Assembly (NCBI GenBank): GCA_005223075.1
Contig: NJBO01000003.1
Coordinates: 9,902 to 73,901 of the forward strand
Reading direction: 5' to 3'
Length of the DNA stretch: 64,000 bases
Source of the DNA: a candidate division TA06 bacterium B3_TA06
GTDB taxonomy: Bacteria; Hydrothermota; Tepidihabitantia; B3-TA06
The notes under the pieces: generated by a model
Database searches by the model: none
What the model was told of the DNA's origin: nothing
The model's input: the letters and a program-made list of their open reading frames with translations, nothing else
Shown: piece by piece, positions 19,975-36,135 of the stretch
How positions within the stretch are numbered: position 1 is the first letter of the stretch
How the letters are laid out: every line of letters starts with the position of its first letter
Position numbers and translations under genes: made by a program

Positions 19975-21048
19975 GTGATGCATAAGAAACTTTTCATCCC
20001 AGGACCCACCGAGGTCCTGCCTGAGGTTCTAGAGGCTCAGACCAAACCCATGTTCGGGCACCGCATGAAGGAGGCATCCGAACTGGGAACATCGGTAATC
20101 AACAAGCTGAAAAAAGTACTGGAGACCGACCAGCAGGTGATCGTGTGGACCGCTTCGGGTTCCTTGATCATGGAGGCATCCATACGCAACAGCGTCAAGA
20201 AGGGCGTGCTCAACACTATCTGCGGGGCCTTTTCCGAGCGCTGGCACAAGATGGCCAAGGCCAACGGCTTGCCATGTGGTGCTATTGAAGTCGAATGGGG
20301 CAAGGCCATAACGCCGGAGATGGTGGATCAAGAACTGGCAACCGGCAAATACGACGTGCTGTGCCTTACCCATAACGAAACCTCCACCGGCGTAATGAAC
20401 CCAACCGATGCGATCGCGGACATGGTGCGTGAGCGCTATCCGGACGTTTTGATTCTGGTAGACGCCGTCTCCTCACTCACCGGTGCCAGGATCAACGTTG
20501 ACAAATACGACGTGGTTTTGACCTCTACCCAGAAATGTGTGGCACTTCCACCCGGCCTTTCCTTCTGCACCGTCTCCGACAGGTTCCTTGAGCGGGCCCA
20601 GACCATCGAGCACCGCGGCCACTACACCGACTTCCTACTCATGAAGAAGTACATAGACGAGCGAGGCGGACAGACACCATCCACCCCCAACCTTGCCCTC
20701 TACAACGCACTCGACTTCCAGCTCGATCGCATGCTTGAAGAAGGCATGGACAACCGTTACAAGCGTCACTCGGATATGGCCAACCGCGTGCGCTCCTGGG
20801 CAAAGGAGCACTTTGATCTTTTCCCTGAGCAAGGCTATGAGTCCGAGACCGTGACCGTTATCGCCAACACCAAGGGCATAAGTGTGGCCGATTTGAACAA
20901 GGCATTGGCTGAGCGCGGCATGGCCCTAGCCAACGGCTACGGTAAAAAGCTCAAGGAGAAGACCTTCCGCATCGCCCACATGGGTGATCTTCAGATGAAA
21001 GACATAGACGAGCTATTGGCCGCTATAGACGACATACTCGGCCACTAG
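19975..21048 (+). CDS. Class V aminotransferase (serine-glyoxylate or phosphoserine aminotransferase type)
   Basis: 357 aa; PLP-dependent class V pattern (VLILVDAVSSL, TSTQKCVALPPG); adjacent to serA-like gene. Confidence 0.8.
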   Translation: MMHKKLFIPGPTEVLPEVLEAQTKPMFGHRMKEASELGTSVINKLKKVLETDQQVIVWTASGSLIMEASIRNSVKKGVLNTICGAFSERWHKMAKANGLPCGAIEVEWGKAITPEMVDQELATGKYDVLCLTHNETSTGVMNPTDAIADMVRERYPDVLILVDAVSSLTGARINVDKYDVVLTSTQKCVALPPGLSFCTVSDRFLERAQTIEHRGHYTDFLLMKKYIDERGGQTPSTPNLALYNALDFQLDRMLEEGMDNRYKRHSDMANRVRSWAKEHFDLFPEQGYESETVTVIANTKGISVADLNKALAERGMALANGYGKKLKEKTFRIAHMGDLQMKDIDELLAAIDDILGH

Positions 21049-21057
21049 GAGGATGTA

Positions 21058-21957
21058 ATGAAGGTTTTAGTAAACGACGCCATCGCCCCCCAGGGCGTCC
21101 AGAAGCTGAAGGACGCAGGATTCGAGGTGGTGGTGGATCATCTCGAACCGGAGGATTTGAAAGCTCAGATCAAAGACTACGACGCCCTCATCGTGCGTTC
21201 GGCGACCAAGGTGCGCCGCGAGATCATCGAGGCCGCCGAGAACCTGAAGGTGATCGGTCGCGCCGGCGTTGGACTGGATAACGTGGACCGCGAGGCGGCC
21301 AAGGAGCGCGGCATTGCTGTCTACAACACCCCGGCAGCGACATCCATCTCGGTAGCTGAGCTTGCTCTGGGTATGATGCTTTCCGCGGCCCGGCACATCG
21401 CACAGGGCACGGTTAGCCTCAAGCAAGGCCGCTGGGACAAGAAGAAGTTCAAGGGTATTGAGCTTTACGGCAAGACACTGGGCATAATCGGCATGGGTCG
21501 CATCGGCTCCGAGCTGGCCAAGCGCGCCCGGGCCATGGGCATGAGTGTCTTCTTCTTCGACGCCGTAGTCTCCGAATCCGAGTTCGGCACCTACAAGGAG
21601 ATGGATGAGGTCCTGGCGGAGGCTGATTTCCTTTCCCTTCACCTGCCCCATAACGACAGCACCCATTACCTCATAAGCACCGATGCGTTTGCGAAGATGA
21701 AGGACGGAGCGATTCTTGTCAACGCTGCCCGCGGCGGTGTGGTTGATGAGGAGGCGCTGTATGAAGCGCTCACCTCCGGCAAGCTCAGAGCGGCCGCCGT
21801 AGACGTCTACGAGAGCGAACCTGTAACCGAGCACAAGCTCTTTAGTCTGGATAACGTGGTGCTCACCCCGCACGTGGGTGCCCAGGCCGCAGAAGGTCAG
21901 CAGCGCGCAGGCGTGCAGGTCGCAGAAAAGGTAATCGAGGCGCTCAAGGGGTCATAA
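21058..21957 (+). CDS. D-3-phosphoglycerate dehydrogenase-like 2-hydroxyacid dehydrogenase (no ACT domain)
   Basis: 299 aa; NAD-binding GIIGMGRIGSELAKRA and catalytic region; SerA-like. Confidence 0.8.
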   Translation: MKVLVNDAIAPQGVQKLKDAGFEVVVDHLEPEDLKAQIKDYDALIVRSATKVRREIIEAAENLKVIGRAGVGLDNVDREAAKERGIAVYNTPAATSISVAELALGMMLSAARHIAQGTVSLKQGRWDKKKFKGIELYGKTLGIIGMGRIGSELAKRARAMGMSVFFFDAVVSESEFGTYKEMDEVLAEADFLSLHLPHNDSTHYLISTDAFAKMKDGAILVNAARGGVVDEEALYEALTSGKLRAAAVDVYESEPVTEHKLFSLDNVVLTPHVGAQAAEGQQRAGVQVAEKVIEALKGS

Positions 21958-23247
21958 GTGGCAACCATACGACCGTTCAGAGGGCTTCGCTACAACCCGG
22001 AAGAGATAGCTGACCCCTCTCGTGTGATCACCCAGCCCTACGACAAGATAACGCCCCGGATGCAAGCGGAGTATTATGATCGGCACCCGCTGAACTATGT
22101 ACGCCTCATCTACGGACGCGAAGAAGACCGTTACCAGGAATCGGCGGATTTCTTCAACAAGTGGATGGAAGAGGGTCTCATCATCAAGGATGTCGAACCC
22201 GCACTCTACCCATATACCCAGACTTATAGGATTGAGGGTAATCCTGCCCCTATCACCCGCACCGGGTTCATCACCGCACTCAAGCTTCACCCTTACTCCG
22301 ACAGGGTGGTGCTTCCGCACGAGCGCACCCTGAAGGGGCCAAAACAGGATCGTTTCAAACTCTTTTCAAAGACACATAAGAACTACGAGCAGGTGTTCAT
22401 GCTCTACGCTGATTCCGACCGCAGGATCGAGAAGTTCTTTGAGCCTGCGATGGCCCAAAAGCCCCTGATGGAGGCGACGGACGATTATGATTGTATCCAC
22501 AGGGTTTGGCGGGTTTCTGATCCTGAGGTGATCGGCAAGGTTCAGGAGGTTCTTGCTCCCAAACCGGTAATGATCGCAGACGGTCACCACCGCTACGAGA
22601 CCGCGCTTGCACTCAAGGAGCATCTTGTCAAGGATCATCCCGATGTGCCTGACGCCTCGGCCTTCAACCACCGCATGGTGACACTGGTTAATCTGTTCGA
22701 TCCAGGACTGCTGGTGCTTCCTACCCATCGCTACGTGATAAAACTGAAAACCGACTTCGATACCGCCAAAGCGGAGATGGCAGAGTATTTCGAGATCACG
22801 CCGGTTGCCAAGGAAGAACTTGCGGTCAAGGTCAAGGAGAACGCGGATAAGCACGCGTTTGGCCTCTATCGTAAGGACGGTTCCTGGCTTCTGCTGCTCA
22901 AGGACGATGCCGTGATGGACGAGGTAATGCCCGCAGATCCGCCCCAGATCAAAGCGCTTGACGTATCTGTGCTGCACAACCTGGTGATCGAGAAGCTGTT
23001 GGATATCAGCAAGGAGGAGATCGAGTCATACATCCGCTACGAGCGCTACGTGGATAAAGCTTTCAGCCGTGTGGATTCCGGCGAGTTTGAGATATGCTTC
23101 CTCATGAACCCGACAAAGGTCGAGCAGGTTGAAGCGGTCTCGGCGGCCGGCGCCAGGATGCCGCAGAAGTCCACCGACTTCTACCCGAAGCTCGTTTCAG
23201 GTCTGGTGGCGTTTGACGTTTCTCCGGGCGAGGTTCTGCCCTGGTAG
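21958..23247 (+). CDS. DUF1015-family protein
   Basis: 429 aa; GTG start; N-terminal MATIRPFRGLRY resembles the conserved DUF1015 N-terminus (recalled, not searched). Confidence 0.55.
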   Translation: MATIRPFRGLRYNPEEIADPSRVITQPYDKITPRMQAEYYDRHPLNYVRLIYGREEDRYQESADFFNKWMEEGLIIKDVEPALYPYTQTYRIEGNPAPITRTGFITALKLHPYSDRVVLPHERTLKGPKQDRFKLFSKTHKNYEQVFMLYADSDRRIEKFFEPAMAQKPLMEATDDYDCIHRVWRVSDPEVIGKVQEVLAPKPVMIADGHHRYETALALKEHLVKDHPDVPDASAFNHRMVTLVNLFDPGLLVLPTHRYVIKLKTDFDTAKAEMAEYFEITPVAKEELAVKVKENADKHAFGLYRKDGSWLLLLKDDAVMDEVMPADPPQIKALDVSVLHNLVIEKLLDISKEEIESYIRYERYVDKAFSRVDSGEFEICFLMNPTKVEQVEAVSAAGARMPQKSTDFYPKLVSGLVAFDVSPGEVLPW

Positions 23248-23316
23248 CGGTGATAGCTTCAAGTTATTAAGAGTAGGGGCACGGCATGCCGTGCCCCTAC
23301 AATTTAGGAGGAAAGG

Positions 23317-26085
23317 ATGTCCCTGACGTTAGTTTTTGCGATACTTGCCGCACCCATAGATAGCCTCTGGCAGACTGAGTACGAGCACATACTTGAAGGG
23401 CTCCAGCTTATGAATCTTGAGGTTTCAGACCTGGGCTACGACAAGCTCTGGCGCGAAGACTCATTCAGGCTCGAGATCGTCAACGACCTCATGAACAACC
23501 CGCTGGACGTGCCTGACTACGTGCTTCTCTCAGGTAAAGAGATACGTGAGCTCTACCGGCCTTCCGACTACCTGAGGTTTACATGTCTGGAGCTTACCGG
23601 CAAGAGGTTCAGATCGGAGAAGATAAAAGCTGCAGATATCGAGGATGCGGTTAAAGAGGTGTTCGAATTGACCAGCCAGCATCTGGATAAGGCGTTTGAG
23701 GATTTAACCGAGGCGGAGCGCGACAGCCTCCTATACACCGCCCCTGCCTTGTGGTCTGACGAGGCCGACTCGTTAGAAAACGGCTACGCAGGCGCGCTGC
23801 ATAAAGAGTTCGGGATAGAGCGCGATACGAGTTACGGGTTGAAGCTGGTTGATCTGCTTCGCTTATCCCAGAAGGTGGATATCCGCGAGCTGCACGTTGC
23901 AGGGGCGAGTCTTGCTGATGGGGTGGAACAGATCATACCAATGGCTAAGGAGCTACTTGCGCAGGAGAACCCGCCACAGGTGCAGGTGGAGGGGGTTGAA
24001 GGAGTGGTCTACGCGGTCTACGATCTCCCCGATGGCCAGAAATGCGTTATCGGCGGACCGTGGCATAACACCTATACCGGTGATTTCGCGGTGATCATCG
24101 ATCTGGGCGGCAACGATGTCTACGAAGGACGGGCTGCAGGTGCGGTTGGCGAGCTGTGGACCGCGGTCAGCTTCGTGCTCGATCTTGCAGGAGACGACGT
24201 CTACCGCAACCGTACCAAGCTGGTTAACCAGGGTGCGGCGCTGTTCGGTGCGGCCTTATTATGGGATAAAGGCGGCAACGATTCCTACACAGGGTTCCAC
24301 ATCTCGCATGGTGCGGGTCTGTATGGGATCGGCATGTTGATCGACGAGGACGGAGAGGATTCATACAGGGCCGGGTTCTTCACCCAGGGGGCGGGCAACT
24401 TCGGATCAGGCGTTCTTGCCGATCGTGAAGGCGACGACACCTACCGCGCCTGGGACTGGACTCAAGGGTTAGGCGGCCCATGGGGATACGGGTTAATTGC
24501 CGACTACGAAGGCGACGATCTGTACTACGCTGGCGGGGTTCACATCCACCATCCCCTTACCCCTGACCAGTACCGCTCGTTCGCCCAGGGGTTCGGTTTC
24601 GGCTGGCGCGACGTGGCCTCCGGTGGGATAGGATTTTTATACGACCGTAAGGGCAACGATAAGTACATCTCAGAGATATACGCGCAGGCCACCTCCTACT
24701 GGTTCGCGTTAGGGATGCTTTTAGATGAACAGGGCAACGATTTGTACTCGGCGGCTCAGTACTCTCAAGGGTCAGGCATTCATTTATCGATAGGTGCGTT
24801 GATGGATCTGGAGGGCGACGATCACTACTTCTCGCGCTACGGTCCGTCCCAGGGTGAGGGGCACGATCTTGCGGTCGGCTGGCTTCTTGATGCCGACGGC
24901 GACGATGTGTATTACGCGTCAGGAGGTCAGGGGATCGGCCTGACCAACTCGGTAGGGATATTCGTGGACACAAGGGGTAACGACGACTACTGCTCCCGCG
25001 AGGGTCTAAGCCAGGGCGGGGCAAACTGGTCGCGAGGCACCGGGGGAGTGGGCATGTTTATCGACCTTCAGGGTAACGACCGCTACGCCGAGGAGGACAA
25101 GGGCGAAAATAACCACGTCTGGACCTCAGGCACCTTCGCCCTGGGTATGGACGTGGAGGCGGTCCAGCCGCGCAAGGAACCCTGGCAGGATACGGTTACC
25201 ACCTTCCCTGAGCTGGATACGTTAGAGACTGACTCGGCAAGGATGGCGAGGCTGTTCCACTACGCGTCGCTGTGGGAGGTGCGCGGCGACATCGGCAAGG
25301 TAAGGACAGCAAGAAGGATGCTGAAAGAGGATTACGCAGAGCAGGCGGTCTCATACATCTTCAACTACGAGTTCTGCACCTACAGCGGGCTGACGCTGCG
25401 GGCGATAGAGAAGCATTTTGCGGAGTTCAAGGACACCGCCGCCTACTATCTCTATCAAGGTCTTGAAGCAGACAACGACACCATCGTGCGCAACTCGATC
25501 TATCTCTTGGGTCAGCTGGAGATCGAGGGAGCAGCAGACACATTAATCAAAAAGCTTGAGGACAAACGCAACGACTCCCTGGCAGGCTCACTGGTCTCTG
25601 CGCTTGGGAAGTTAAAGGCAAATCAGGCGGTTCCTGCGATAGTCCACTACGCCGATCATCATAAGGAACGCATGAGGATTCTGGTGGCAGAGGCTTTCTC
25701 AAAGATAAAGGACGAAAGGGCCGTACCTGTCTTGATAGATGATCTTTCGGATCCCTACTTTACGGTCCGCGCCGCGGCGATGGCCGCTTTAGCCCAGATA
25801 GGTGAGGCGGCACTTGAACCCCTTGAGATTGAGTTGGACAAAGCACGCAAACCGGATTATCAGGCGACACTCCTGCGAGCACTGCGCAACGTCTATACGA
25901 AACTAGAGGACGAGGAGAAGACCTCAGACCTCAAGGAGCGCTTGGCTGAGCTTGCGCGGCCCTATCTTGATGCCTCCTACCCCGCACTTCGCGAACAGGC
26001 GCAAAAGCTCTTAGACGAGGTGGAAGGCCGCAGCATACTCTCTCCTACCGAGCTGTTCGGCTATCCTGAGCAAGCTTGGGATTGA
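23317..26085 (+). CDS. Large repeat protein: ~12 G(N/D)DxY repeats plus C-terminal HEAT/PBS-lyase-like repeats
   Basis: 922 aa; repeats GGNDVYEG, AGDDVYRN, GGNDSYTG, DGEDSYRAG, EGDDTYRAW, EGDDLYYAG, KGNDKYISE, QGNDLYSAA, EGDDHYFSR, DGDDVYYAS, RGNDDYCSR, QGNDRYAEE; immediately upstream of the paralog array. Confidence 0.55.
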   Translation: MSLTLVFAILAAPIDSLWQTEYEHILEGLQLMNLEVSDLGYDKLWREDSFRLEIVNDLMNNPLDVPDYVLLSGKEIRELYRPSDYLRFTCLELTGKRFRSEKIKAADIEDAVKEVFELTSQHLDKAFEDLTEAERDSLLYTAPALWSDEADSLENGYAGALHKEFGIERDTSYGLKLVDLLRLSQKVDIRELHVAGASLADGVEQIIPMAKELLAQENPPQVQVEGVEGVVYAVYDLPDGQKCVIGGPWHNTYTGDFAVIIDLGGNDVYEGRAAGAVGELWTAVSFVLDLAGDDVYRNRTKLVNQGAALFGAALLWDKGGNDSYTGFHISHGAGLYGIGMLIDEDGEDSYRAGFFTQGAGNFGSGVLADREGDDTYRAWDWTQGLGGPWGYGLIADYEGDDLYYAGGVHIHHPLTPDQYRSFAQGFGFGWRDVASGGIGFLYDRKGNDKYISEIYAQATSYWFALGMLLDEQGNDLYSAAQYSQGSGIHLSIGALMDLEGDDHYFSRYGPSQGEGHDLAVGWLLDADGDDVYYASGGQGIGLTNSVGIFVDTRGNDDYCSREGLSQGGANWSRGTGGVGMFIDLQGNDRYAEEDKGENNHVWTSGTFALGMDVEAVQPRKEPWQDTVTTFPELDTLETDSARMARLFHYASLWEVRGDIGKVRTARRMLKEDYAEQAVSYIFNYEFCTYSGLTLRAIEKHFAEFKDTAAYYLYQGLEADNDTIVRNSIYLLGQLEIEGAADTLIKKLEDKRNDSLAGSLVSALGKLKANQAVPAIVHYADHHKERMRILVAEAFSKIKDERAVPVLIDDLSDPYFTVRAAAMAALAQIGEAALEPLEIELDKARKPDYQATLLRALRNVYTKLEDEEKTSDLKERLAELARPYLDASYPALREQAQKLLDEVEGRSILSPTELFGYPEQAWD

Positions 26086-26295
26086 CGGAGCAATCTAGCA
26101 GAAAGTAAGGGCGCCTTTAGGGCATCTAAGACTCCAAAAACGACGAGTGGGAAGGGGCTACCCCAACCAAATTCTTGATATCATTTTTTTGATTTATAAC
26201 AAAAGCTCTTGACAATCATAAAATTTTGTGCATCATTAGGGATAGAAGGAAGATTTATGTCCTTCTTTCAGAAACCTTCAACCCAAGGAGGAGAT

Positions 26296-26745
26296 ATGCA
26301 TAACTCCAAAAAACTCATACTCGCCGTCCTGGCAGTTATCCTGCTGCTGGGAGCCACTCCGGCGTTCGCTCAGCTGGGCGGAACCTGGGAGGGCATAGGT
26401 AGGGGCGAAGCTTACCCGCCCTGTCACCCTCCTATACACCCCTGGCAGACGTGGAAGGGCGAGATCCCGGCCACCCAAGATGTCTTCACCGGCGAATGGT
26501 GGGATGCGGACGGCAATCACGGCACATTCAAGGGCGTGGTGGAGTTCTCACCCATTCCTGAGATAGCATACGCTGAAGGCGAATGGACATGGTACGACCC
26601 CACAGGCCACTCTCAGCAACCAATAGTCGGCGGCAAGTTCAAGATGACGTTCTACATCCTGGAAAAAAGATGCGAAGGCACCTGGACATCCATCTGGCCC
26701 TCACCCAGCGATCACGGCACCATGAAAGGCTGGAAGGTAGATTAA
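26296..26745 (+). CDS. Array paralog 1: small Sec-secreted Trp/Cys-rich protein, subtype A
   Basis: 150 aa; start placed at ATG 26296 (SD aaggagg); signal MHNSKKLILAVLAVILLLGATPAFA; PPCHPPIHPWQTWKGEIP ... GTMKGWKVD. Confidence 0.7.
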   Translation: MHNSKKLILAVLAVILLLGATPAFAQLGGTWEGIGRGEAYPPCHPPIHPWQTWKGEIPATQDVFTGEWWDADGNHGTFKGVVEFSPIPEIAYAEGEWTWYDPTGHSQQPIVGGKFKMTFYILEKRCEGTWTSIWPSPSDHGTMKGWKVD

Positions 26746-26809
26746 CCTTCCATGAAACTCGGAGGGGCAGATTTCTGCCCCTCCTCACAGATCACAAAAG
26801 GAGTAAGAG

Positions 26810-27253
26810 ATGAGTAACTTCAAAAAACTCACGATCGCCGCGCTCGCGGTGATCTTTCTGATCGGAGCAACGCCTATTGCCGCCGAGCTCGACGGCATCT
26901 GGGAAGGCCATGGCGATGGAACCTGGCGGCCACCAAGCGGCATAGTACCTGTTCACCCCTGGCAAACCTGGAAAGGCACCGTCGAGAACGGACGCTTTTA
27001 CGGGGAGTGGTACGATAGCACAGGCGCCCACGGCAGATTCCAAGGCGTCATACCATCCTTAACCCAAGAGGTAGCATACTGCGAAGGCTTCTGGACGTGG
27101 GTAGATGAAGGTTGCGACCCACCACGGGAGATCACCGTAGGTCCGTTCGAGATGGATTTTCACTACGTCATTGAAACATGCAGGGGCGCATGGTGGAGTG
27201 AACTTACCGCCGTCCCGCAAGGACACATGTGGGGCCGAAGGACAGGCCCGTAG
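26810..27253 (+). CDS. Array paralog 2, subtype B-like
   Basis: 147 aa; signal MSNFKKLTIAALAVIFLIGATPIAA; HPWQTWKGTVENG ... CEGFWTWVD. Confidence 0.7.
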   Translation: MSNFKKLTIAALAVIFLIGATPIAAELDGIWEGHGDGTWRPPSGIVPVHPWQTWKGTVENGRFYGEWYDSTGAHGRFQGVIPSLTQEVAYCEGFWTWVDEGCDPPREITVGPFEMDFHYVIETCRGAWWSELTAVPQGHMWGRRTGP

Positions 27254-27326
27254 GGCATAATAGAAACCAAGCAGGGGGCGGGGTTACTCGCCCCCTCATA
27301 AACCTAAAACCTCAAAGGAGGAACAA

Positions 27327-27773
27327 ATGAGCAACTCCAAAAAACTCATAATCGCCCTCGCCGTGATCTTCTTGGTTGGGGCAACACCTGCCTTGGCCGA
27401 TCTCGATGGTATTTGGGAAGGCTATGGTAATGGCAGCTACTACTTACCTGACGGTAGCATCATCTACCCATGGCAAAGCTGGAACGGTACTGTCGAGAAT
27501 GGAGTCTTCAGCGGCTCCTGGGAAGATGACGAAGGCAACTCCGGCGGTTTCACAGGAGGCATCACATGCTTCTTCACTACTGTCCCACCCTCATATACGT
27601 TTGCCGGCTGCGAAGGAACCTGGACGTGGATTGACCCCAGCGGCTTAGAACCCATTGAACTAGGGAGCTTCTGGATGACGTTCAACGTAGACCTTGACAC
27701 CTGCTGGGGCGAATGGTTGCCTTACACTAATGCTCAGGGTGGAACCATGTGGGGCTGGAGGATAGGAGACTGA
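27327..27773 (+). CDS. Array paralog 3, subtype B
   Basis: 148 aa; YPWQSWNGTVENG ... CEGTWTWID ... GGTMWGWRIGD. Confidence 0.7.
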   Translation: MSNSKKLIIALAVIFLVGATPALADLDGIWEGYGNGSYYLPDGSIIYPWQSWNGTVENGVFSGSWEDDEGNSGGFTGGITCFFTTVPPSYTFAGCEGTWTWIDPSGLEPIELGSFWMTFNVDLDTCWGEWLPYTNAQGGTMWGWRIGD

Positions 27774-27846
27774 GGCATAATAGAAACCAACCAGGGGGCG
27801 GGGTTACTCGCCCCCTCATAAACCTTAAACCAAAAGGAGGAACAAA

Positions 27847-28302
27847 ATGAGTAACTCCAAAAAACTCCTCATCGCCCTGGCTGTGATACTTGCAGTCGGG
27901 GCAACGCCCCTCCTCGCACAACTTGAAGGACCGTGGGCAGGCAATGGCGAAGGAAGCTGCAAGACACCCACCGGAATCACTATCTACCCTTGGCAGGAGT
28001 GGGACGGCTTCGTGGAGAATGGAGCCTTCGACGGCAGTTGGTGGGACGGCGACAACGGCGGCAACTTTCACGGCGACATAATATCCATCAGCACCCCAGT
28101 CCCACCCGCGGAACCACATGACGTAGCATACTGTGAAGGCACCTGGACATGGGTAAATGACGAGGGGGAGGAGATATCTATGGGCCAGTTCTGGATGAAC
28201 TTTGACCTCCTCTACGGAACATGCGAAGGTGAATGGTGGCCTTGCAATCGCCCTGAGCCTTGGGGCCCGGGAATCATGTGGGGCTGGAGGATAGGAGACT
28301 GA
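27847..28302 (+). CDS. Array paralog 4, subtype B
   Basis: 151 aa; YPWQEWDGFVENG ... CEGTWTWVND ... IMWGWRIGD. Confidence 0.7.
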   Translation: MSNSKKLLIALAVILAVGATPLLAQLEGPWAGNGEGSCKTPTGITIYPWQEWDGFVENGAFDGSWWDGDNGGNFHGDIISISTPVPPAEPHDVAYCEGTWTWVNDEGEEISMGQFWMNFDLLYGTCEGEWWPCNRPEPWGPGIMWGWRIGD

Positions 28303-28375
28303 GGCATAATAGAAACCAAGCAGGGGGCGGGGTTACTCGCCCCCTCATAAACCTTAAACCTCAAAGGAGGAACAA

Positions 28376-28813
28376 ATGAGCACCCCAAAAAAAATCCTGC
28401 TAACCGCTTTGGCGGTGATCCTTTTACTAGGGGCCACGCCTATTGCCGCCCAGATCGCAGGAGTCTGGGAGGGCACCGGTAAAGGCGCAGCTTACCCGCC
28501 CTGCCACCTACCTATATATCCATGGCAGAAATGGATAGGCGAGATACCAAACTCTGAAGACGTCTTTTTCGGCGAGTGGAAAGACACCCTTGACAACCAC
28601 GGCAGATTCGAAGGCAAGCCTGCACCTTACTCCACTCCTGATGCGAAGGTGTTCAAAGGCTACTGGACCTGGGAAACCCCCGAAGGGATATTCAAAGGCG
28701 GCGAATTCACGATGACCTTTTACTTCTTGGAAGGCGAATGCAAGGGCACCTGGACATCCATCTGGCCTTCGCCGGGCAAGCTGGGAACCATGAGAGGCTG
28801 GAAGGTGCACTGA
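28376..28813 (+). CDS. Array paralog 5, subtype A
   Basis: 145 aa; PPCHLPIYPWQKWIGEIP ... GTMRGWKVH. Confidence 0.7.
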   Translation: MSTPKKILLTALAVILLLGATPIAAQIAGVWEGTGKGAAYPPCHLPIYPWQKWIGEIPNSEDVFFGEWKDTLDNHGRFEGKPAPYSTPDAKVFKGYWTWETPEGIFKGGEFTMTFYFLEGECKGTWTSIWPSPGKLGTMRGWKVH

Positions 28814-28880
28814 AGCATACAACCAACCAGGGGGCGGCCCTCCGCCCCCTATAAACCTTAAACCTCAAAGGAGGAACAAA

Positions 28881-29318
28881 ATGAGTAACCCCAAAAAACT
28901 CCTCATCGCCGCGCTTGCGGTGATCTTCCTGCTCGGCGCAACGCCCCTTGCCGCCGAGCTAGACGGGTTCTGGGCAGGAACTGGCACTGGCTGCTGCCAT
29001 CCAGAGTCCACCACCATCACCATATACCCCTGGCAGACATGGGACGGCTTCGTCGTGAACCACGAGATCTTTCACGGTGAGTGGCAAGATAGCTTAGGAC
29101 ACCAAGGCACCTTCGAAGGAAGAGTCGTCCAGATAGACTCAACCTATGCGGTTTTCGAAGGCACGTGGAGATGGACTGACCCCACCATACTCATAATCCC
29201 TCCTGTTATAGGCGAGTTCCATATGGACTTCGATCTTCTCACCCGCACCTGCCTGGGCGAATGGTTCTACCATGAGGACTACGGAACCATGCAAGGACAA
29301 AAACTGGAGACAAAATAA
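28881..29318 (+). CDS. Array paralog 6, divergent B-like
   Basis: 145 aa; GCCHPESTTITIYPWQTWDGFVVN ... GTMQGQKLETK. Confidence 0.7.
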   Translation: MSNPKKLLIAALAVIFLLGATPLAAELDGFWAGTGTGCCHPESTTITIYPWQTWDGFVVNHEIFHGEWQDSLGHQGTFEGRVVQIDSTYAVFEGTWRWTDPTILIIPPVIGEFHMDFDLLTRTCLGEWFYHEDYGTMQGQKLETK

Positions 29319-29393
29319 GAAAGAACAGACAAACCAACCAGGGGGCGGGGTTACTCGCCCCCTCATAAACCTTAAACCTCAAAGGAGGAACAA

Positions 29394-29834
29394 ATGAGCA
29401 CCCCAAAAAAAATCCTGCTAACCGGTTTGGCGGTAATCCTTTTACTAGGGGCCACGCCGCTTGCCGCCCAGATCGCAGGAAGATGGGAGGGTACTGGTAC
29501 AGGCGAAGCTTACCCGCCCTGCCACCCGCCTATACACCCCTGGCAGATCTGGATGGGCGAGATCCCGCTCACTCAGGATGTTTTCACAGGCGAATGGTGT
29601 GACGCGGACTGCAATCACGGCACCTTCAAGGGCGAGATAGCCCCTTTCTCAACTCCAGAGGAAGCATACTGTGAAGGTTATTGGACGTGGGATGATCCTT
29701 CCAGCCCGTCCATCATTGTAGGCCATTTCAAGATGACGTTCTACATCCTGGAAGGAATATGCGAAGGCACCTGGACATCCATCTGGCCATCGCCCAGCGG
29801 TCCCGGAACCATGAAAGGCTGGAAGATAGACTGA
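29394..29834 (+). CDS. Array paralog 7, subtype A
   Basis: 146 aa; PPCHPPIHPWQIWMGEIP ... GTMKGWKID; 5' end nearly identical at nucleotide level to paralogs 5 and 12. Confidence 0.7.
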   Translation: MSTPKKILLTGLAVILLLGATPLAAQIAGRWEGTGTGEAYPPCHPPIHPWQIWMGEIPLTQDVFTGEWCDADCNHGTFKGEIAPFSTPEEAYCEGYWTWDDPSSPSIIVGHFKMTFYILEGICEGTWTSIWPSPSGPGTMKGWKID

Positions 29835-29907
29835 GGTATACCTCGACAGACCATCAGGGGGCGGCCCTCCGCCCCCTTACAAACCTTAAACCAAAAGGAG
29901 GAACAAA

Positions 29908-30342
29908 ATGAGTAACTCCAAAAAACTCCTCATCGCCGCGCTTGCGGTGATCTTCCTCGCAGGGGCTACGCCTCTCGCCGCCCAGCTCGCAGGAGTCTGG
30001 GCAGGCACGGGCGAAGGCTGCTGCAGCCCTCCCGGAACTACCATCTACCCTTGGCAGACGTGGAAGGGTGAAATACCCAACAGCCAAGACGTGTTTTCCG
30101 GCAAGTGGTGGGACGCAGATAGCAACCGGGGCACCTTCCACGGAAAGATAATAATCTCCAGTGTCACCGAAGCATACTGCGAAGGTATCTGGAACTTAGA
30201 TGACCCTTCAGGGGCTTCAATCATTGGAGGTGATTTCAAGATGACATTCTACATCCTGGAAGGAACATGCGAAGGCACCTGGATATCCATCTGGCCCACC
30301 GCCTTACCCGCAACCATGAGAGGCTGGAAGGTAGAACCGTAA
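29908..30342 (+). CDS. Array paralog 8, A/B mosaic
   Basis: 144 aa; B-type signal peptide with A-type body (YPWQTWKGEIPNSQDVFSGKWWD ... TMRGWKVEP). Confidence 0.7.
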   Translation: MSNSKKLLIAALAVIFLAGATPLAAQLAGVWAGTGEGCCSPPGTTIYPWQTWKGEIPNSQDVFSGKWWDADSNRGTFHGKIIISSVTEAYCEGIWNLDDPSGASIIGGDFKMTFYILEGTCEGTWISIWPTALPATMRGWKVEP

Positions 30343-30406
30343 AGTCACAACCTAGGGGGCGGGCTTGTGCCCCCTCATAAACCTCAAACCTCAAAGGAGG
30401 AACAAA

Positions 30407-30856
30407 ATGCACAACTATAAAAAACTCATACTCGCCGCCCTGGCAGTTATCCTGCTGCTGGGAGCCACTCCGGCGTTCGCTCAGCTGGCCGGAACCTGGG
30501 AGGGCACTGGTAGGGGCGAAGCTTACCCGCCCTGCCACCCTCCTATACACCCCTGGCAAAACTGGATAGGCGAGATCCCGAACTCTCAGGATGTGTTTTT
30601 CGGCGAATGGTGGGACTCGGACTGCAATCACGGCACCTTCAAGGGCGAAATAGCCCCTTTCTCCACTCCAGAGGAAGTATACTGTGAAGGCGAATGGACA
30701 TGGTACGACCCCACAGGCTCCTCTCACCAACCAATAGTCGGCGGCAAGTTCAAGATGACGTTCTACATCCTGGAAGGAAGATGCGAAGGCACCTGGACCT
30801 CCATATGGCCATCGCCCAGCGAGCACGGAACCATGAGAGGCAGGAAGGTACACTGA
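30407..30856 (+). CDS. Array paralog 9, subtype A
   Basis: 149 aa; start placed at ATG 30407 after SD aaaggagg; ends GTMRGRKVH. Confidence 0.7.
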   Translation: MHNYKKLILAALAVILLLGATPAFAQLAGTWEGTGRGEAYPPCHPPIHPWQNWIGEIPNSQDVFFGEWWDSDCNHGTFKGEIAPFSTPEEVYCEGEWTWYDPTGSSHQPIVGGKFKMTFYILEGRCEGTWTSIWPSPSEHGTMRGRKVH

Positions 30857-30925
30857 ACCTTAACGCCGAGCGGGGACGGGTTTCCATCCCCGCTCGGGAT
30901 AAACCTTAAACCAAAAGGAGAAGCA

Positions 30926-31354
30926 ATGAGTAACTCCAAAAAGCTAATGCTCACCGCCTTGGCGGTGATCTTTCTGATCGGAGCGACGCCTCTCTTCGCC
31001 GATCTCGACGGCATCTGGGAAGGCTACGGCGAAGGAAGCTGCGAGACACCCGCTGGAACCATCATCTACCCCTGGCAAACCTGGAACGGAACCGTTGATG
31101 AATACGGGTACTTCTCCGGCGAGTGGGAAGACTCGGACGGCAATCAAGGCACCTTCGAAGGCTGCATGGCGTCCCTGAACCCCCCAGTCTGCCCGGGGGT
31201 ATGGACATGGAGAGACGATTCGAGTCTCGAACCCATCGAGATGGGCCTATTCCAGATGGTCTTTTACGAGGTCCAAGGAACATGCAACGGCGAATGGTGG
31301 CCGTACTCTGGCGCTCAGGGTGGAACCATGTGGGGCTGGAGTATAGGAGACTAA
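30926..31354 (+). CDS. Array paralog 10, subtype B
   Basis: 142 aa; YPWQTWNGTVDEYG ... GGTMWGWSIGD. Confidence 0.7.
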   Translation: MSNSKKLMLTALAVIFLIGATPLFADLDGIWEGYGEGSCETPAGTIIYPWQTWNGTVDEYGYFSGEWEDSDGNQGTFEGCMASLNPPVCPGVWTWRDDSSLEPIEMGLFQMVFYEVQGTCNGEWWPYSGAQGGTMWGWSIGD

Positions 31355-31425
31355 GGCATAATAGAAACCAACCAGGGGGCGGCCATCCGCCCCCACTTAA
31401 ACCCTAAACCTCAAAGGAGGAACAA

Positions 31426-31875
31426 ATGAGTAACCCCAAAAAAATCCTCATCGCCGCGCTTGCGGTGATCTTCCTCGCAGGGGCGACGCCGCTTCTTGCC
31501 CAACTCAACGGTACATGGGCGGGCGAAGGAGAAGGCGTTTGCTCTCCGCCTCCCCCTATACCTACCGACTTCCCCATCTATGCTTGGCAGAACTGGAAAG
31601 GTCTGGTTGAGGATAATGAAGTCTTCTACGGCGAGTGGTACGATAACCGCTGTAACAACGGCACCTTCAAAGGCGAGATCGTATTCGTAACTCCCGAGGA
31701 TGCATACTGCGAAGGCGAGTGGCACTGGTTCGACGAACGCTACGACCCTCCGCGTGTCTACTACATGGGACCGTTTTCGATGAAGTTCAAGCTGGAAGAA
31801 GCAATATGCTACGGTGAATGGCGGACTTACTACAGTAATGAGAGCGGAACCATGAAAGGAGAAAAGATAGACTGA
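31426..31875 (+). CDS. Array paralog 11, divergent
   Basis: 149 aa; FPIYAWQNWKGLVEDNEVFYGEWYD ... GTMKGEKID. Confidence 0.7.
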   Translation: MSNPKKILIAALAVIFLAGATPLLAQLNGTWAGEGEGVCSPPPPIPTDFPIYAWQNWKGLVEDNEVFYGEWYDNRCNNGTFKGEIVFVTPEDAYCEGEWHWFDERYDPPRVYYMGPFSMKFKLEEAICYGEWRTYYSNESGTMKGEKID

Positions 31876-31953
31876 GGATATACCGGGAAACCGGCTAACC
31901 CAGGGGGCGGGCTTCCGCCCCCTGATAAACCCTAAACCTCAAAGGAGGAACAA

Positions 31954-32400
31954 ATGAGCACCCCAAAAAAAATCCTGCTAACAGGTTTGGCGGTGATCCT
32001 TTTACTAGGGGCCACGCCGCTTGCCGCCCAGATCGCAGGCACATGGGAAGGCACCGGAACCAGCTGCTGCTGTCCACACCCGGGCACGATCATCTACCCC
32101 TGGCAGGCGTGGGTAGGTGAGATCCCCAACTCCCAGGACGTCTTCACCGGCGAGTGGAAAGACAGCCTCGACAACCGCGGCACATTCAAGGGCGAAATCC
32201 TCTGGATCAGCACCACCGTCGCCATCGCCAGAGGTTCCTGGTACTGGTTCGATCCTACCGGTCCCAGTCACGAACCGGTCTACGGAGGCGACTTCGAGAT
32301 GAAGTTCTACGTCTACGAGAGGGAGTGCACCGGCACCTGGACATCCATCTGGCTATCGCCCAGCGAACACGGAACCATGAGAGGCAGAAAGGTACACTAA
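31954..32400 (+). CDS. Array paralog 12, subtype A
   Basis: 148 aa; CCCPHPGTIIYPWQAWVGEIP ... GTMRGRKVH. Confidence 0.7.
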   Translation: MSTPKKILLTGLAVILLLGATPLAAQIAGTWEGTGTSCCCPHPGTIIYPWQAWVGEIPNSQDVFTGEWKDSLDNRGTFKGEILWISTTVAIARGSWYWFDPTGPSHEPVYGGDFEMKFYVYERECTGTWTSIWLSPSEHGTMRGRKVH

Positions 32401-32466
32401 ACCTAAAGCCGAGGGGGGCGCAAACCCGTCCCCCTCGGGATGAACCTTAAACCAAAAGGAGAAGCA

Positions 32467-32922
32467 ATGAGTAACTCCAAAAAGCTAATGCTCACCGCCT
32501 TGGCGGTGATCTTTCTGATCGGAGCAACGCCGCTCTTCGCAGAACTCGACGGCATCTGGGAAGGCTACGGCGAAGGAAGCTGCGAGACACCCGCTGGAAT
32601 CATCATCTACCCCTGGCAAACCTGGAACGGCAGCCTGGAGTCATGGCTCTTCACCGGCCACTGGCAAGACTTGGACGGCAGCTCCGGCGGCTTCCAGGGG
32701 GCCGTCATATCCCTCGCCAAATCCGTTGAACCGCCTTACCATACGGTTGCTCACTGCGAAGGAACCTGGACGTGGATGGATCCCAGCGGCTTAGAACCCC
32801 TCGAAATGGGTCCCTTCAATATGGAGTTCAATCTGGACATTGACACCTGCTGGGGCAACTGGTACTCCTATTCTAGCCCCGGAATTGGCGGAACCATGTG
32901 GGGCTGGAGGATAGGAGACTGA
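32467..32922 (+). CDS. Array paralog 13, subtype B
   Basis: 151 aa; start placed at ATG 32467; first ~45 codons and upstream intergenic region nearly identical to paralog 10. Confidence 0.7.
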   Translation: MSNSKKLMLTALAVIFLIGATPLFAELDGIWEGYGEGSCETPAGIIIYPWQTWNGSLESWLFTGHWQDLDGSSGGFQGAVISLAKSVEPPYHTVAHCEGTWTWMDPSGLEPLEMGPFNMEFNLDIDTCWGNWYSYSSPGIGGTMWGWRIGD

Positions 32923-32942
32923 GGTATAATAGAAACCAACCA

Positions 32943-32971
32943 GGGGGCGGGCATCCGCCCCCGATTTTTTT
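32943..32971 (+). terminator. Intrinsic terminator closing the paralog array
   Basis: gggggcgg-gcat-ccgccccc followed by gattttttta; the only array hairpin with a T-tract. Confidence 0.7.
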
Positions 32972-32974
32972 AAA

Positions 32975-33012
32975 CCCCACACGGGCGCTTTACGTGCCCG
33001 TGCGGGGACCCC
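32975..33012 (-). repeat. R1 hairpin repeat (reverse orientation)
   Basis: ccccacacgggcgctttacgtgcccgtgcggggacccc. Confidence 0.65.
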
Positions 33013-33118: not shown

Positions 33119-33643
33119 ATGAAGACGGTTGTTGTTTACTATTCCCGCTACGGTAACTCGCGGGTGGCGGCGCGCTTGATAGCAAAACATCTTCAAGCAC
33201 CCGTGCACCGCATAGAGGTCAAGCGCCACAGAGGAGTGGTTAGGTCTACGTTCTCCGCCCTTTTCGGGCGTCGTCCTGAGATCAAAACCATCCCTCTACA
33301 ACCCCAGGACTGGGACCTGATGGTAATTGTTGTTCCGATATGGTCAGGCAGGCCGGCAACACCTCTTAAAACCTTCCTTGCCGAGACACGACTTGCCGAA
33401 AAGCAGGTGGCTGTGTTCTTTTCATACACCAAAACCGATCCCCACAAACGCCCTTCGCGCTGGATGCAAAAGGTGTTGGGGCACTTCGGTGCGCGGCTCG
33501 TTGCCGTAGGCGGGTACAACATCTCCCTTAAGAATCACACCGTACTCAAGCAGCGGATCTGGGACTTCCTCGCCCAGCTCCCACCCCAAGCCATCCCATC
33601 GACTCCCTCCAAGAAATCCGCCAGGCGCAGCCCTCAAAAATAG
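33119..33643 (+). CDS. Flavodoxin-like fold protein (putative)
   Basis: 174 aa; N-terminus MKTVVVYYSRYGNS resembles flavodoxin-type phosphate-binding loop. Confidence 0.45.
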   Translation: MKTVVVYYSRYGNSRVAARLIAKHLQAPVHRIEVKRHRGVVRSTFSALFGRRPEIKTIPLQPQDWDLMVIVVPIWSGRPATPLKTFLAETRLAEKQVAVFFSYTKTDPHKRPSRWMQKVLGHFGARLVAVGGYNISLKNHTVLKQRIWDFLAQLPPQAIPSTPSKKSARRSPQK

Positions 33644-33718
33644 CCTGCCCCTTTCCAAGGTGTTGCACTTCACCATTGAACTCACGAACCCCTGTCCCTT
33701 AAACCGAATTGAAATGTT

Positions 33719-34381
33719 TTACTTGCTCTTCATCCTCGTGGTAAGCAGACCGATAAAGGAGCTGAGTGAGCGCGTCTGCATGATGACTTTGCCAGGGCCG
33801 GTGAAGCTTGCGACCAGGCCCTCGCCCGAAAGAAGTGTGCTCTTCAGGCCGCCTACGGCCTTTACGTTGTACTGCACGTCCTCATCGAAAGCGACCATGT
33901 GCCCGGTATCCACCTTGAGTTCCTGACCGGCAGGCAGTTCACGCTCGGTCATCGCCCCGTAGGAGGACAGGAAAAGATCGCCGGTGCCTGAGATCTTCAG
34001 AAGGAACAGACCTTCGCCGGAGAAGAATGTTTTGGCGCCGCCGAACTTCGTGTCTACCTCGATGTCTCCTACCGAGCAGATGAACGAGCCGGATTGGACA
34101 AACAGGGTGTTGCCGACCATCGGGACGTGTTTGATGTCGCCCGGGACGGAAGAGGCAAGGGTTACTTCGCCTGTGCCGGTGTAGTGGTTCATGAAGAAGC
34201 TCTCGCCGCCCAGGAGTGAACGCTTGAGTGCTCCGCCAAGACCGCCTCGCATCTTGGTTTCGATGTTGATGGTACCGTCCATTGAGACCATCGCTCCGGC
34301 TTCAGCGGTAATCTTTTCGCCCTCGCCGATCCGGATCGAAAGCAGGGAAAACGCAGGTCCATACTCTATCTTGTGTTCCAT
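33719..34381 (-). CDS. AIM24/TIGR00266-like family protein (putative)
   Basis: 220 aa, Gly-rich beta-strand pattern; assignment from recalled family pattern. Confidence 0.5.
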   Translation of the reverse strand: MEHKIEYGPAFSLLSIRIGEGEKITAEAGAMVSMDGTINIETKMRGGLGGALKRSLLGGESFFMNHYTGTGEVTLASSVPGDIKHVPMVGNTLFVQSGSFICSVGDIEVDTKFGGAKTFFSGEGLFLLKISGTGDLFLSSYGAMTERELPAGQELKVDTGHMVAFDEDVQYNVKAVGGLKSTLLSGEGLVASFTGPGKVIMQTRSLSSFIGLLTTRMKSK

Positions 34382-34447
34382 TTACGCCTCCTTATTTGAT
34401 TGGCTGTGTATAATTCTCAGAATCGAGCGCTTGTCAAGCAATTTATA

Positions 34448-34483
34448 CCCCACGTCTTCACTTCGTGAAGCCGCGGGGACCCC
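34448..34483 (-). repeat. R1 hairpin repeat (reverse orientation)
   Basis: ccccacgtcttcacttcgtgaagccgcggggacccc. Confidence 0.65.
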
Positions 34484-34490
34484 GATTTTT

Positions 34491-34527
34491 GCTCCTTTTT
34501 GCCTTCGGCAAAAAGATCGCAAAGGAG
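34491..34527 (+). repeat. R8 hairpin repeat
   Basis: gctcctttttgccttcggcaaaaagatcgcaaaggag. Confidence 0.6.
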
Positions 34528-34642
34528 AAAAACACATTATCTCTGGGAATAAATCACTACGTCCTTCCGACTCCTGCGAATCAATTTCTCCGAGCCTCTA
34601 CAAGAAGGCGAAGCATTCGTTGTTTCGGCAAAAACTTCCTCC

Positions 34643-34674
34643 CTGCGATCTTTTCTCAGTATGAGAAAAGGAGC
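34643..34674 (-). repeat. R8 hairpin repeat (reverse orientation)
   Basis: ctgcgatcttttctcagtatgagaaaaggagc. Confidence 0.55.
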
Positions 34675-34719
34675 ATGTGAAAAACCGGGGCCGTGAGGCC
34701 CCGGCTCTTTGTGGTCTTT

Positions 34720-36135
34720 CTAGGGTCGGATGGTTAGAAAGTGCGTGTGCCCTCTACGGTTAATCTGGAAAAGGGCCACGTCTGCCTTCTCCAGATCACC
34801 TTTCAGTCTCTTTAACTCTTTGACGTTAGAGATGAGGATTTTGTTGACTTTAATGATTACGTCTCCGACCCTGATTCCTGCCCTGTCGGCCAGACTGCCG
34901 GGTTCGACATCCTCCACCAGAACCCCATGCTTGAGATCATATTCCTTCTTGATTCTGTCACTTATGTCTTTGACCGTTATGCCAAGGATAGATGTCTTGG
35001 TCCCTTTCTCCTCTTCGGGTACAGGCTCGATGCGGGTGGAGAGTTCCTCGCGGCCAGGGCGTTCGGCAAGCCTCAGGGTTATCTTCCTGCGTTTGCCTTC
35101 ACGGATAATATCAAGGTCTACCTTTGTGCCAGGTGCAGTGCTTGCGGCAAGCCAGCGAAGCTGATCTACCGAGGTTATCTTTTCTCCGGCAAACGAGGTG
35201 ATTAGGTCGCCGTCCTCCAGACCCGCCTTCTCGGCCGGTGAGTCGGGAACAACCCTGGTTACAAAAACCCCTTCTTCCTCGATATCCATTGCTTCAAGCA
35301 CCTCAGGTTTGACTTCCTCGAGGTATATCCCCATATAGCCGCGTGAGATCTTGCCGTGCTTGATAAGCTCGCCTGCGATATCGGCGGCCATGTCAGAAGG
35401 AATGGCGAACCCTATACCTGAGTTCGCAAGCCCGTTCGTACGGATAGCGGTGTTGATGCCGATGACCTCGCCATTGATGTTGCATAATGCTCCGCCCGAG
35501 TTGCCCGGGTTGATTGCCGCGTCGGTCTGCAGGAAGTTCTGGTAGCTTGGACCGCCATATAGGAGCACGTTACTGCGTCCCTTGGCACTTACCACGCCCA
35601 CTGTCACGGTTTGCTCAAGGTTGTAGGGGTTGCCGATGGCAATCGCCCAGTCGCCGACCTTGACCTCTTCAGAGCTGGCAAACTTCGCTACCGGGAGGGG
35701 GTCCTTGGCTTTGATCTTGAGAACGGCGAGGTCGGTCTCAGGGTCTGTGCCGATGACTTCCACGTCTTTGCCGGAGAACTCCCTGCCGTCTGACAACTTT
35801 ACTCCGATATCCTTAGCGCCATCAACCACGTGGTTGTTTGTCAGTATGTATCCTCGTTCATCGAAGATCACGCCGGAGGCGGCACCCGGAACAAACCGGG
35901 GGGCACGTGGAGCAGGGATGTCGAAGTCCCAAAATTCAAAGAACTTACGAAGTTCTTCCGGGACACTCTCCTCGTCGAAATCGAACCCCTGAACGAATGG
36001 AACCTCCTTTGTCACGGTGATACCGACCACCGCCGGCGCCACCTTATCCACCACCTCGCTGAATCCTTCAAGCGGTACAGCAGAGTTGAGTGCTGCCGAT
36101 GAGATAAGGATCAAAATGCTTAGAACTCTTCTCAT
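34720..36135 (-). CDS. htrA: HtrA/DegP-family periplasmic serine protease with two PDZ domains
   Basis: 471 aa; signal peptide; trypsin-like core GYILTNNHVV ... GNSGGAL; SD aaggagg. Confidence 0.9.
   Translation of the reverse strand: MRRVLSILILISSAALNSAVPLEGFSEVVDKVAPAVVGITVTKEVPFVQGFDFDEESVPEELRKFFEFWDFDIPAPRAPRFVPGAASGVIFDERGYILTNNHVVDGAKDIGVKLSDGREFSGKDVEVIGTDPETDLAVLKIKAKDPLPVAKFASSEEVKVGDWAIAIGNPYNLEQTVTVGVVSAKGRSNVLLYGGPSYQNFLQTDAAINPGNSGGALCNINGEVIGINTAIRTNGLANSGIGFAIPSDMAADIAGELIKHGKISRGYMGIYLEEVKPEVLEAMDIEEEGVFVTRVVPDSPAEKAGLEDGDLITSFAGEKITSVDQLRWLAASTAPGTKVDLDIIREGKRRKITLRLAERPGREELSTRIEPVPEEEKGTKTSILGITVKDISDRIKKEYDLKHGVLVEDVEPGSLADRAGIRVGDVIIKVNKILISNVKELKRLKGDLEKADVALFQINRRGHTHFLTIRP

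Follow-up and report, generated by a model that had tools for sequence, protein, structure and literature searches.

Concerted evolution by gene conversion is well described in bacterial multigene families, for example in the duplicated tuf genes and the ribosomal RNA (rRNA) operons. In antigenic variation from silent cassettes, as in Neisseria pilE/pilS, Borrelia vlsE and Anaplasma msp2, a single expression site is combined with truncated, promoterless donors. The closest precedent for the locus described here is the lpl cluster of Staphylococcus aureus. This cluster lies in the nuSa-alpha island and consists of tandem lipoprotein-like paralogs (Tsuru and Kobayashi 2008, PMC2568036). The 5′ and 3′ parts of its open reading frames give incongruent phylogenies, and its units of similarity are made up of the 3′ end of one gene, the spacer and the 5′ end of the next (PMC2568036). 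A central conserved region within the reading frame is the crossover site, and tail, spacer and leader form a variable, stably linked unit; deletions, duplications, apparent conversions and translocations between strains were attributed to homologous recombination (PMC2568036). We analysed a stretch of 64,000 nucleotides (nt) from the candidate division TA06 bacterium B3_TA06 (contig NJBO01000003.1), referred to as the window, which holds a tandem array of 13 intact paralogs, p1 to p13. This array very probably evolves by homologous recombination between misaligned copies, a block at the p12/p13 junction being one product. It is a clear new case of a process already well known in kind and reveals no new mechanism, so its interest is moderate.

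The paralogs (locus tags CEE36_02870 to CEE36_02925) lie on the + strand between 26296 and 32922, equally spaced and 142–151 codons long. Each begins with a Sec-type signal peptide, and the spacers between neighbours (64–78 nt) each contain a GC-rich hairpin and a near-constant stretch around the ribosome-binding site (RBS). None of the 13 copies is truncated or frameshifted, and every one has its own strong RBS, an ATG and a signal peptide. We designate related loci in other genomes L001, L003 and so on, with their genes numbered after an underscore, and spacers of the window as ig9/10 and so on. The two junctions on which the main result rests comprise the following genes and modules.

30407–30856, + strand: p9, A-type, 149 amino acids (aa), 87% identical to p1 across 432 nt
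30788–30860, + strand: p9 tail module (last 23 codons, stop codon and ACCT), ~92% identical to 32332–32404 (73 nt)
30866–30897, + strand: spacer hairpin ig9/10, 11-bp stem; minimum free energy (MFE) of the whole 69-nt spacer −29.6 kcal/mol; 98–100% match to the first L003 spacer
30893–31089, + strand: tract of RBS, signal peptide and N terminus on the p10 side, 97% identical to 32434–32630 (191/197 nt)
30926–31354, + strand: p10, B-type, 142 aa
31954–32400, + strand: p12, A-type, 148 aa, body orthologous to L003_10 and L001_6 (93–98%), tail of the RGRKVH class, as in p9
32332–32404, + strand: p12 tail module, unlike the SEQGTMRGWKVE-type tail (with minor variants) of p12-type genes in four other genomes
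32409–32438, + strand: spacer hairpin ig12/13, 12-bp stem; MFE of the whole 66-nt spacer −28.4 kcal/mol
32434–32630, + strand: tract of RBS, signal peptide and N terminus on the p13 side; synonymous divergence (pS) 0.06–0.16 inside and 0.57 beyond
32467–32922, + strand: p13, B-type, 151 aa, codons 1–55 p10-like, codons 45–64 matching L003_11

When the array was compared with itself by BLAST, 30788–31089 (p9 codon 128 to p10 codon 55) and 32332–32630 (p12 codon 127 to p13 codon 55) aligned along 302 nt with 92.4% identity, 20 mismatches and one 3-nt gap. Paralog sequence around this block is only ~55–65% identical, and p9–p10 against p12–p13 windows elsewhere mostly reach 40–80%. A preliminary description of this DNA had reported that the end of p9, the hairpin and the first ~45 codons of p10 recur almost exactly at p12/p13. 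The repeat is real and its 5′ gene part is longer than stated, reaching codon 55; the hairpin does not bear out the near-exact match, as set out below. The most similar part is the 197-nt tract, which extends from the RBS through the signal peptide to mature codon 29. Between p10 and p13, pS is 0.16 in codons 1–26 and 0.06 in codons 27–55 but rises to 0.57 over the remaining codons. We also applied a GENECONV-style test to 12 junction units, shuffling the order of polymorphic sites; p9/p10 against p12/p13 gave the highest-scoring fragment of the 66 pairs (global P<0.002, with no permutation reaching it), and 13 other junction pairs had global P<0.05.

Near-identical relatives made it possible to place this event. 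The right flank of the array is 97–99% identical between the window and both L001 (Stahlbacteria E44_bin36) and L003, whereas their left flanks are only 89–94% identical to it. The p12 body is 93–98% identical to L003_10 and L001_6, and p13 codons 45–64 are 90–98% identical to L003_11, the neighbour of L003_10; windowed best matches nevertheless placed the p12/p13 junction with p9/p10. We aligned p12–p13 with p9–p10 as the paralog and with L003_10–11 as the relative, and scored informative sites. Inside 32355–32621, 62 sites joined p12/p13 to p9/p10 and 5 joined them to L003_10/11; outside, the counts were 15 and 202, with sites supporting the relative dominating up to 32354 and again afterwards. 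The sequence therefore changes from ortholog-like to paralog-like at 32355 and reverts at 32621, with a maximum chi-square of 190 that was reached in 0/200 permutations. On these alignments the p12/p13 event reads as a patch replacement (gene conversion or an equivalent double crossover). Because the counterpart genes are adjacent in both the window and L003 and copy number there is unchanged, a patch would have been replaced and no copy added. The term ‘segmental duplication’ used in the preliminary description accordingly does not fit this block, and we dropped a two-gene duplication of p9–p10 into p12–p13, since the bodies are unrelated (pS 0.74 and 0.57) and the L003 counterparts are adjacent.

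The block is one case of a mosaicism that runs through the array. The pairwise homoplasy index (PHI) test reached 0/1000 permutations for genes and 0/1000 for junction units, the latter ~13 standard deviations below the permutation mean, and segment identity matrices showed that nearest neighbours change from segment to segment. The signal-peptide leaders of p5, p7 and p12 share 94–97% nucleotide identity, with pS of 0.09 against 0.58–0.66 in the rest of the genes, which confirms the earlier claim that leaders are homogenised while mature regions diverge. Leader classes differ from one another at pS 0.66–0.71, so no general nucleotide constraint acts on leaders. The pairing of a B-type leader with an A-type body in p8 was also upheld: its leader is nearest to p11, p6 and p2 (80–88%) and its C-terminal half to p7, p9 and p1 (72–81%). 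Similar combinations occur in relatives, so that of p8 is not peculiar to this genome. Tracts of high identity are numerous and nearly all of them take in a spacer. Examples outside the p12/p13 block are given here.

28313–28545, + strand: junction tract from spacer 4/5 to p5 codon 57, 233 nt, 91% identical to 29331–29563 (spacer 6/7 to p7 codon 57)
31916–32048, + strand: junction tract from spacer 11/12 to p12 codon 32, 95.5% identical to 29356–29488 (p7); its first 124 nt (31916–32039) are 95.2% identical to 28338–28461 (p5)
27741–27846, + strand: tail and whole-spacer tract across the stop codon, from the end of p3 to spacer 3/4, 107 nt, 96% identical to 28270–28376 (end of p4 and spacer)

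Exact repeats of at least 25 nt between copies take up 62% of the bases of leaders and 56% of those of spacers but just 10% of those of bodies, and the two longest measure 86 and 83 nt. For 56 genes from eight genomes we then determined linkage, the fraction of cases in which a module with at least 90% similarity was followed by another that also had at least 90%. It lay between 0.56 and 0.72 among N-terminal and body modules but was 0.29 from body to tail and 0.33–0.37 from tail to hairpin, and the low values at module borders mean that breakpoints cluster near codon 125, near the hairpin and immediately downstream of the signal peptide. Related arrays contain no match for the bodies of p4, p5, p6 and p10, although they do match all four leaders and the tails of p4, p5 and p10. 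For orthologous bodies, nonsynonymous and synonymous divergence (pN/pS) were 0.02/0.13, 0.04/0.23 and 0.04/0.15, a ratio of ~0.15–0.27. Such values point to purifying selection and to working genes, not decaying copies. PHI, permuted fragments, the collapse of pS and the three-way switch independently support the earlier proposal that mosaicism reflects recombination within the array; that it is ‘ongoing’ is a further step, taken up below.

Several observations weigh against this reading or narrow it. PHI on third codon positions alone was marginal (61/1000), probably owing to saturation of those sites, and we relied on tract-level synonymous counts instead. Most of L003_11 resembles p3, and a p13-like patch makes it a mosaic in its own right; since L003 is the single reference for the polarity of the 5′ replacement in p13, its direction is tentative. 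All of the sequences are short-read metagenome assemblies, and the junctions are known from these assemblies only. The tail of p12 is 89% identical to that of p9 over 79 nt and at best marginally nearer to it than to tails of other genomes, L007_1 being equally close (89%); p9 is therefore no more than a possible donor of the tail. The repetition of the 3′ end, at ~92% over 73 nt, lies only slightly above the 76–87% that A-type tails show in the last segment in general. The hairpin core of ig12/13 is only 57% identical to that of ig9/10 and differs by 3 nt in length, so a single clean conversion from the present p9/p10 junction fails to explain the whole block.

The block therefore did not survive as one conversion tract from p9/p10, an idea that we dropped after aligning the junctions across genomes. 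The ig12/13 core is 89% identical to L009 ig1/2 and 84% to L005 ig5/6, which follows a p12-type gene, and ig9/10 matches an L003 spacer, so both hairpin variants are old. p12 ends in SEHGTMRGRKVH, of the RGRKVH class. The p12-type genes of L001, L003, L005 and L014 carry a GTMRGWKV-type tail (preceded by EQ or EL; KVE in three, KVLPD in L003), which marks the p12 tail as derived relative to these four genomes. The block is composed of three modules of differing ancestry, namely a tail of the RGRKVH class, an old hairpin variant of separate origin and a 197-nt stretch copied recently from the RBS, leader and N-terminal part of p10, and so reflects two or more events, or else a single discontinuous tract. 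Of these modules, only the 3′ one of 197 nt is confidently linked to the present p10.

The spacers themselves, which in the window lie within 26746–32975, are conserved in form. A stable hairpin is kept in 49/50 spacers of the close clade, compared with 14/25 in distant WOR-3 arrays, and pairing is maintained across several hairpin sequence variants. We folded ten window spacers (11 of the 13; ig3/4 and ig4/5 share the hairpin sequence of ig2/3), obtaining whole-spacer MFE values of −20 to −36 kcal/mol, with a T-run only after the last hairpin. The RBS motif AAACCTCAAAGGAGGAACA occurs 7 times. The hairpin motif GGGGGCGG...CCGCCCCC has five exact copies in the window, all of them inside the array, and we therefore rejected it as a genome-wide element of the repetitive extragenic palindromic type. 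An Rfam search of the array on both strands at a relaxed threshold returned only a chance-level SAM-SAH match (E=0.38), placing the spacers in no described RNA family. The hairpins may stabilize or process the mRNA between cistrons, or may act as leaky terminators.

Every relative that we recovered holds an array of the family at the same locus, between a gene for a 922-aa HEAT-repeat protein and a flavodoxin-like gene. The number of copies at these syntenic loci differs widely.

L006, L009, L016 and L017: 3 copies each
L014: 5 copies
L001: 6 copies
L011: 11 copies
L003 (plus L015): at least 11–13 copies
L013: 12 copies, one being a 32-aa remnant
Window: 13 copies
L010: 23 copies

The L013 remnant (3468–3566) is a tail-only piece between two full copies and the sole degraded copy among the arrays seen. 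The distant WOR-3 genomes carry 23 tandem copies (L010, 2244–15021) and 11 (L011, 10001–15770), with different leaders (MRK...) and weaker spacer hairpins; the formation of arrays is thus a property of the whole family and not only of this genome. Gene order varies too. In L004, a contig from another sample, positions 1–2730 compared with L003 1218–3740 carry the L003 genes in the order 5-6-7-3-4-5, so duplication of multi-gene blocks does occur elsewhere in the family. This order implies tandem duplication or permutation of a five-gene block, the probable signature of unequal crossing-over. Shared tail identity at the joint is only ~37 nt, which makes misassembly at k=141 unlikely. Identity to L001, L003 and L015 also steps across the array, from 89–94% at 19999–26085 to 97–99% at 33119–36135, and this step may mark a recombination boundary between strains.

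In the mechanism that we favour, non-reciprocal exchange of short tracts (gene conversion) would overwrite patches of 50–300 nt and leave mosaics, and reciprocal unequal crossing-over would change copy number and gene order. Exchange would be concentrated at a junction cassette that runs from the last ~24 codons of one gene through hairpin, RBS and signal peptide to the first ~30 mature codons of the next, because the long exact identities between copies there could serve as substrate. Gene bodies (codons ~58–125) would stay distinct under purifying selection. At p12/p13, the junction would have been replaced by sequence of the p9/p10 junction type. Recombination dependent on RecA in Escherichia coli has a minimal length of ~25 nt, which the exact identities at the junctions (25–86 nt) exceed; we infer RecA-type machinery and, likewise, the direction of transfer. 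That exchange is ongoing is suggested by copy numbers of 6, 13 and at least 12 in genomes with right flanks that are 97–99% identical. Import from related strains probably contributes as well, since modules common to several genomes and the step in flank divergence fit it.

Whether such import could be the main source of the mosaic, with DNA taken from the arrays of other cells, is the most serious of the alternatives, although we consider it doubtful. Modules are 90–100% shared between genomes while their neighbours differ, as seen for the 5′ half of p5 (shared with L003_2), the p1 body (L003_7) and the ig12/13 hairpin (L009); the rise in identity to relatives from the left flank to the right would be expected from it, and the lpl model likewise permits recombination between genomes (PMC2568036). 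The 197-nt tract, however, has its best partner in the same genome (97%, against at most 89% in any relative sampled), and 34–39% of within-genome pairs of RBS modules are at least 90% identical. The two sources are not exclusive. It is extremely improbable that no exchange took place and that selection merely held RBS, hairpin and signal peptide constant while bodies drifted. The junctions do contain functional signals, among them the retained hairpin and the recurrent RBS motif, but distinct nucleotide classes of leader coexist (pS 0.66–0.71 between and 0.09 within classes), the similarity is specific to pairs and extends into the mature protein to codon 55, and the tract is nearer to a paralog than to the counterpart gene of a near-identical genome, so that the synonymous-site and three-way tests both contradict constraint.

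An assembly artefact, whether a strain chimera or a wrong path through repeats, has to be considered for a metagenome-assembled genome with exact repeats of up to 86 nt, all the more because the L003 assembly broke inside its array, so that it begins partway through a gene, and L015 of that sample stops partway through one. We regard it as very unlikely here: the 20 mismatches and the indel show that the tract pair is not a collapsed repeat, the exact repeats are shorter than typical reads, and independent assemblies agree on the family, the synteny, the kind of mosaic and several adjacencies (p1–p2 corresponds to L013_10–11). A diversity-generating retroelement was rejected, the variation being an exchange of modules between copies and not point mutagenesis; the ~8–10 kb flanking each side of the syntenic arrays of L001, L003 and L005 contain no annotated reverse transcriptase, and Pfam matches there were to housekeeping and envelope functions only. 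Going beyond the recombination that we favour, the junction cassette might be a built-in recombination device in which hairpins provoke breaks or replication stalls and repair from neighbours reshuffles modules and copy number. We think this improbable. If true, it would provide a free-living anaerobe with a combinatorial repertoire of secreted beta-barrel binders, resembling antigen-variation loci but with every copy expressed.

The remaining genes and the signals that bound the array are listed in order.

26209–26236, + strand: promoter-like site (TTGACA, 16 nt, CATCAT) upstream of p1, in a region conserved in relatives
26296–26745, + strand: p1, A-type, 149 aa, body 100% identical to L003_7, last 23 codons different
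26810–27253, + strand: p2, 147 aa
27327–27773, + strand: p3, B-type, 148 aa
27847–28302, + strand: p4, B-type, 151 aa, body without counterpart in related arrays
28376–28813, + strand: p5, A-type, 145 aa, 5′ 57 codons 98% identical to L003_2, bodies unrelated
28881–29318, + strand: p6, 145 aa
29394–29834, + strand: p7, A-type, 146 aa
29908–30342, + strand: p8, 144 aa, chimera of a B-like leader and an A-type C-terminal half
31426–31875, + strand: p11, 149 aa, ortholog of L003_6
32943–32971, + strand: hairpin (32943–32962) followed by a T-run, the likely terminator for the whole array and the only hairpin with a T-run

The site at 26209–26236 is the sole good promoter-like match on the + strand before the array. 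With one such site and one T-run hairpin, the array is likely to be a single transcription unit, a probable operon. The 5′ leader of p1 contains a small stem-loop (AGAAGGA...TCCTTCT, 26244–26266) that is conserved in relatives; its pairing survives sequence changes (GAAGGAAAG...CTTTCCTTC in L005), and an in-frame upstream ATG lies inside it. Upstream of the array, the 922-aa protein (23317–26085) has its HEAT repeats at the C terminus and 12 G[NDE]DxY motifs spaced ~27 residues apart in residues 265–590, a part without a Pfam match.

The products belong to an uncharacterised family of small secreted proteins of ~145 aa, predicted to be eight-stranded beta-barrels. Pfam and NCBIfam scans of the paralogs gave no hit above cut-off, the best being HphA_N at E=0.12 in one paralog. 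Among 5.8 billion proteins we found 114 related clusters, and the matches named by organism were all TA06, WOR-3, Stahlbacteria or an unclassified ‘bacterium’; an exhaustive profile search of 1.84 billion representative proteins yielded 89 clusters at the 50% identity level. Tandem arrays were present in every multi-gene locus examined. An AlphaFold model built from 116 family sequences had a mean pLDDT of 88 and eight strands after the signal peptide, with variability peaking in loops L4, L5, L6 and L7. Signal peptides end in A-x-A motifs (for example AFA, LAA and IAA) and leaders in AFAQ, LAAQ, IAAQ or FADL; an L-x-x-C lipobox is absent from the leaders of the 13 paralogs. Hemophilin/HphA, TbpB, LbpB, NHBA and fHbp share the eight-stranded barrel at the level of fold only, with 13–19% identity to the family. 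In contrast to these hemophilin- and TbpB-type barrels, the family protein consists of the barrel alone, lacking both handle domain and lipobox, and no function is transferable from them. Titles and abstracts on TA06, WOR-3 or Stahlbacteria do not describe the family or the array. Two distant members, P0165 (288 aa) and P0187 (269 aa), carry a BsuPI domain (PF12690, intracellular proteinase inhibitor) ahead of the barrel, and genes for an HtrA-type protease and a trypsin–tetratricopeptide repeat (TPR) protease closely follow the array on its downstream side, both in the window and in relatives. The fusion and the downstream proteases together hint weakly at a link to proteases.

The array offers statistical evidence that a tandem gene family in an uncultured phylum (TA06/WOR-3) exchanges short tracts and changes in copy number, with relatives close enough for individual events to be placed. 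It also carries a warning for annotation and binning, as gene order and copy number at the locus are not to be trusted from short reads alone. The secreted barrel family may merit study of its own, a question separate from recombination.

How the locus relates to described systems can now be stated. As in silent-cassette antigenic variation, a clustered, variable family of surface or secreted proteins is reshuffled by segmental gene conversion; here, however, 13/13 copies are complete, there is no single expression site with truncated donors, and the organism is a free-living sediment bacterium. The concerted evolution of tuf genes and rRNA operons resembles the array in its non-reciprocal, short-tract homogenization within a genome, low pS and sharp tract borders. 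In the array, by contrast, homogenization is partial and modular, and divergent bodies under purifying selection yield a mosaic instead of uniform copies. The lpl cluster shares most: tandem paralogs of secreted proteins, incongruent 5′ and 3′ histories and units of similarity that run across gene junctions. The TA06 products belong to a different family in a different phylum and have no lipobox, and there is no central crossover region. The junction is instead the most conserved part (exact repeats of 25 nt or more make up 56–62% of it but 10% of bodies) and at the same time the least stably linked (0.29–0.37), as the hairpin of other ancestry in the p12/p13 block illustrates, while the bodies are the stable units (0.56–0.72). 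The module logic is thus opposite to that of the best-studied bacterial precedent, with stable bodies and promiscuous junctions.

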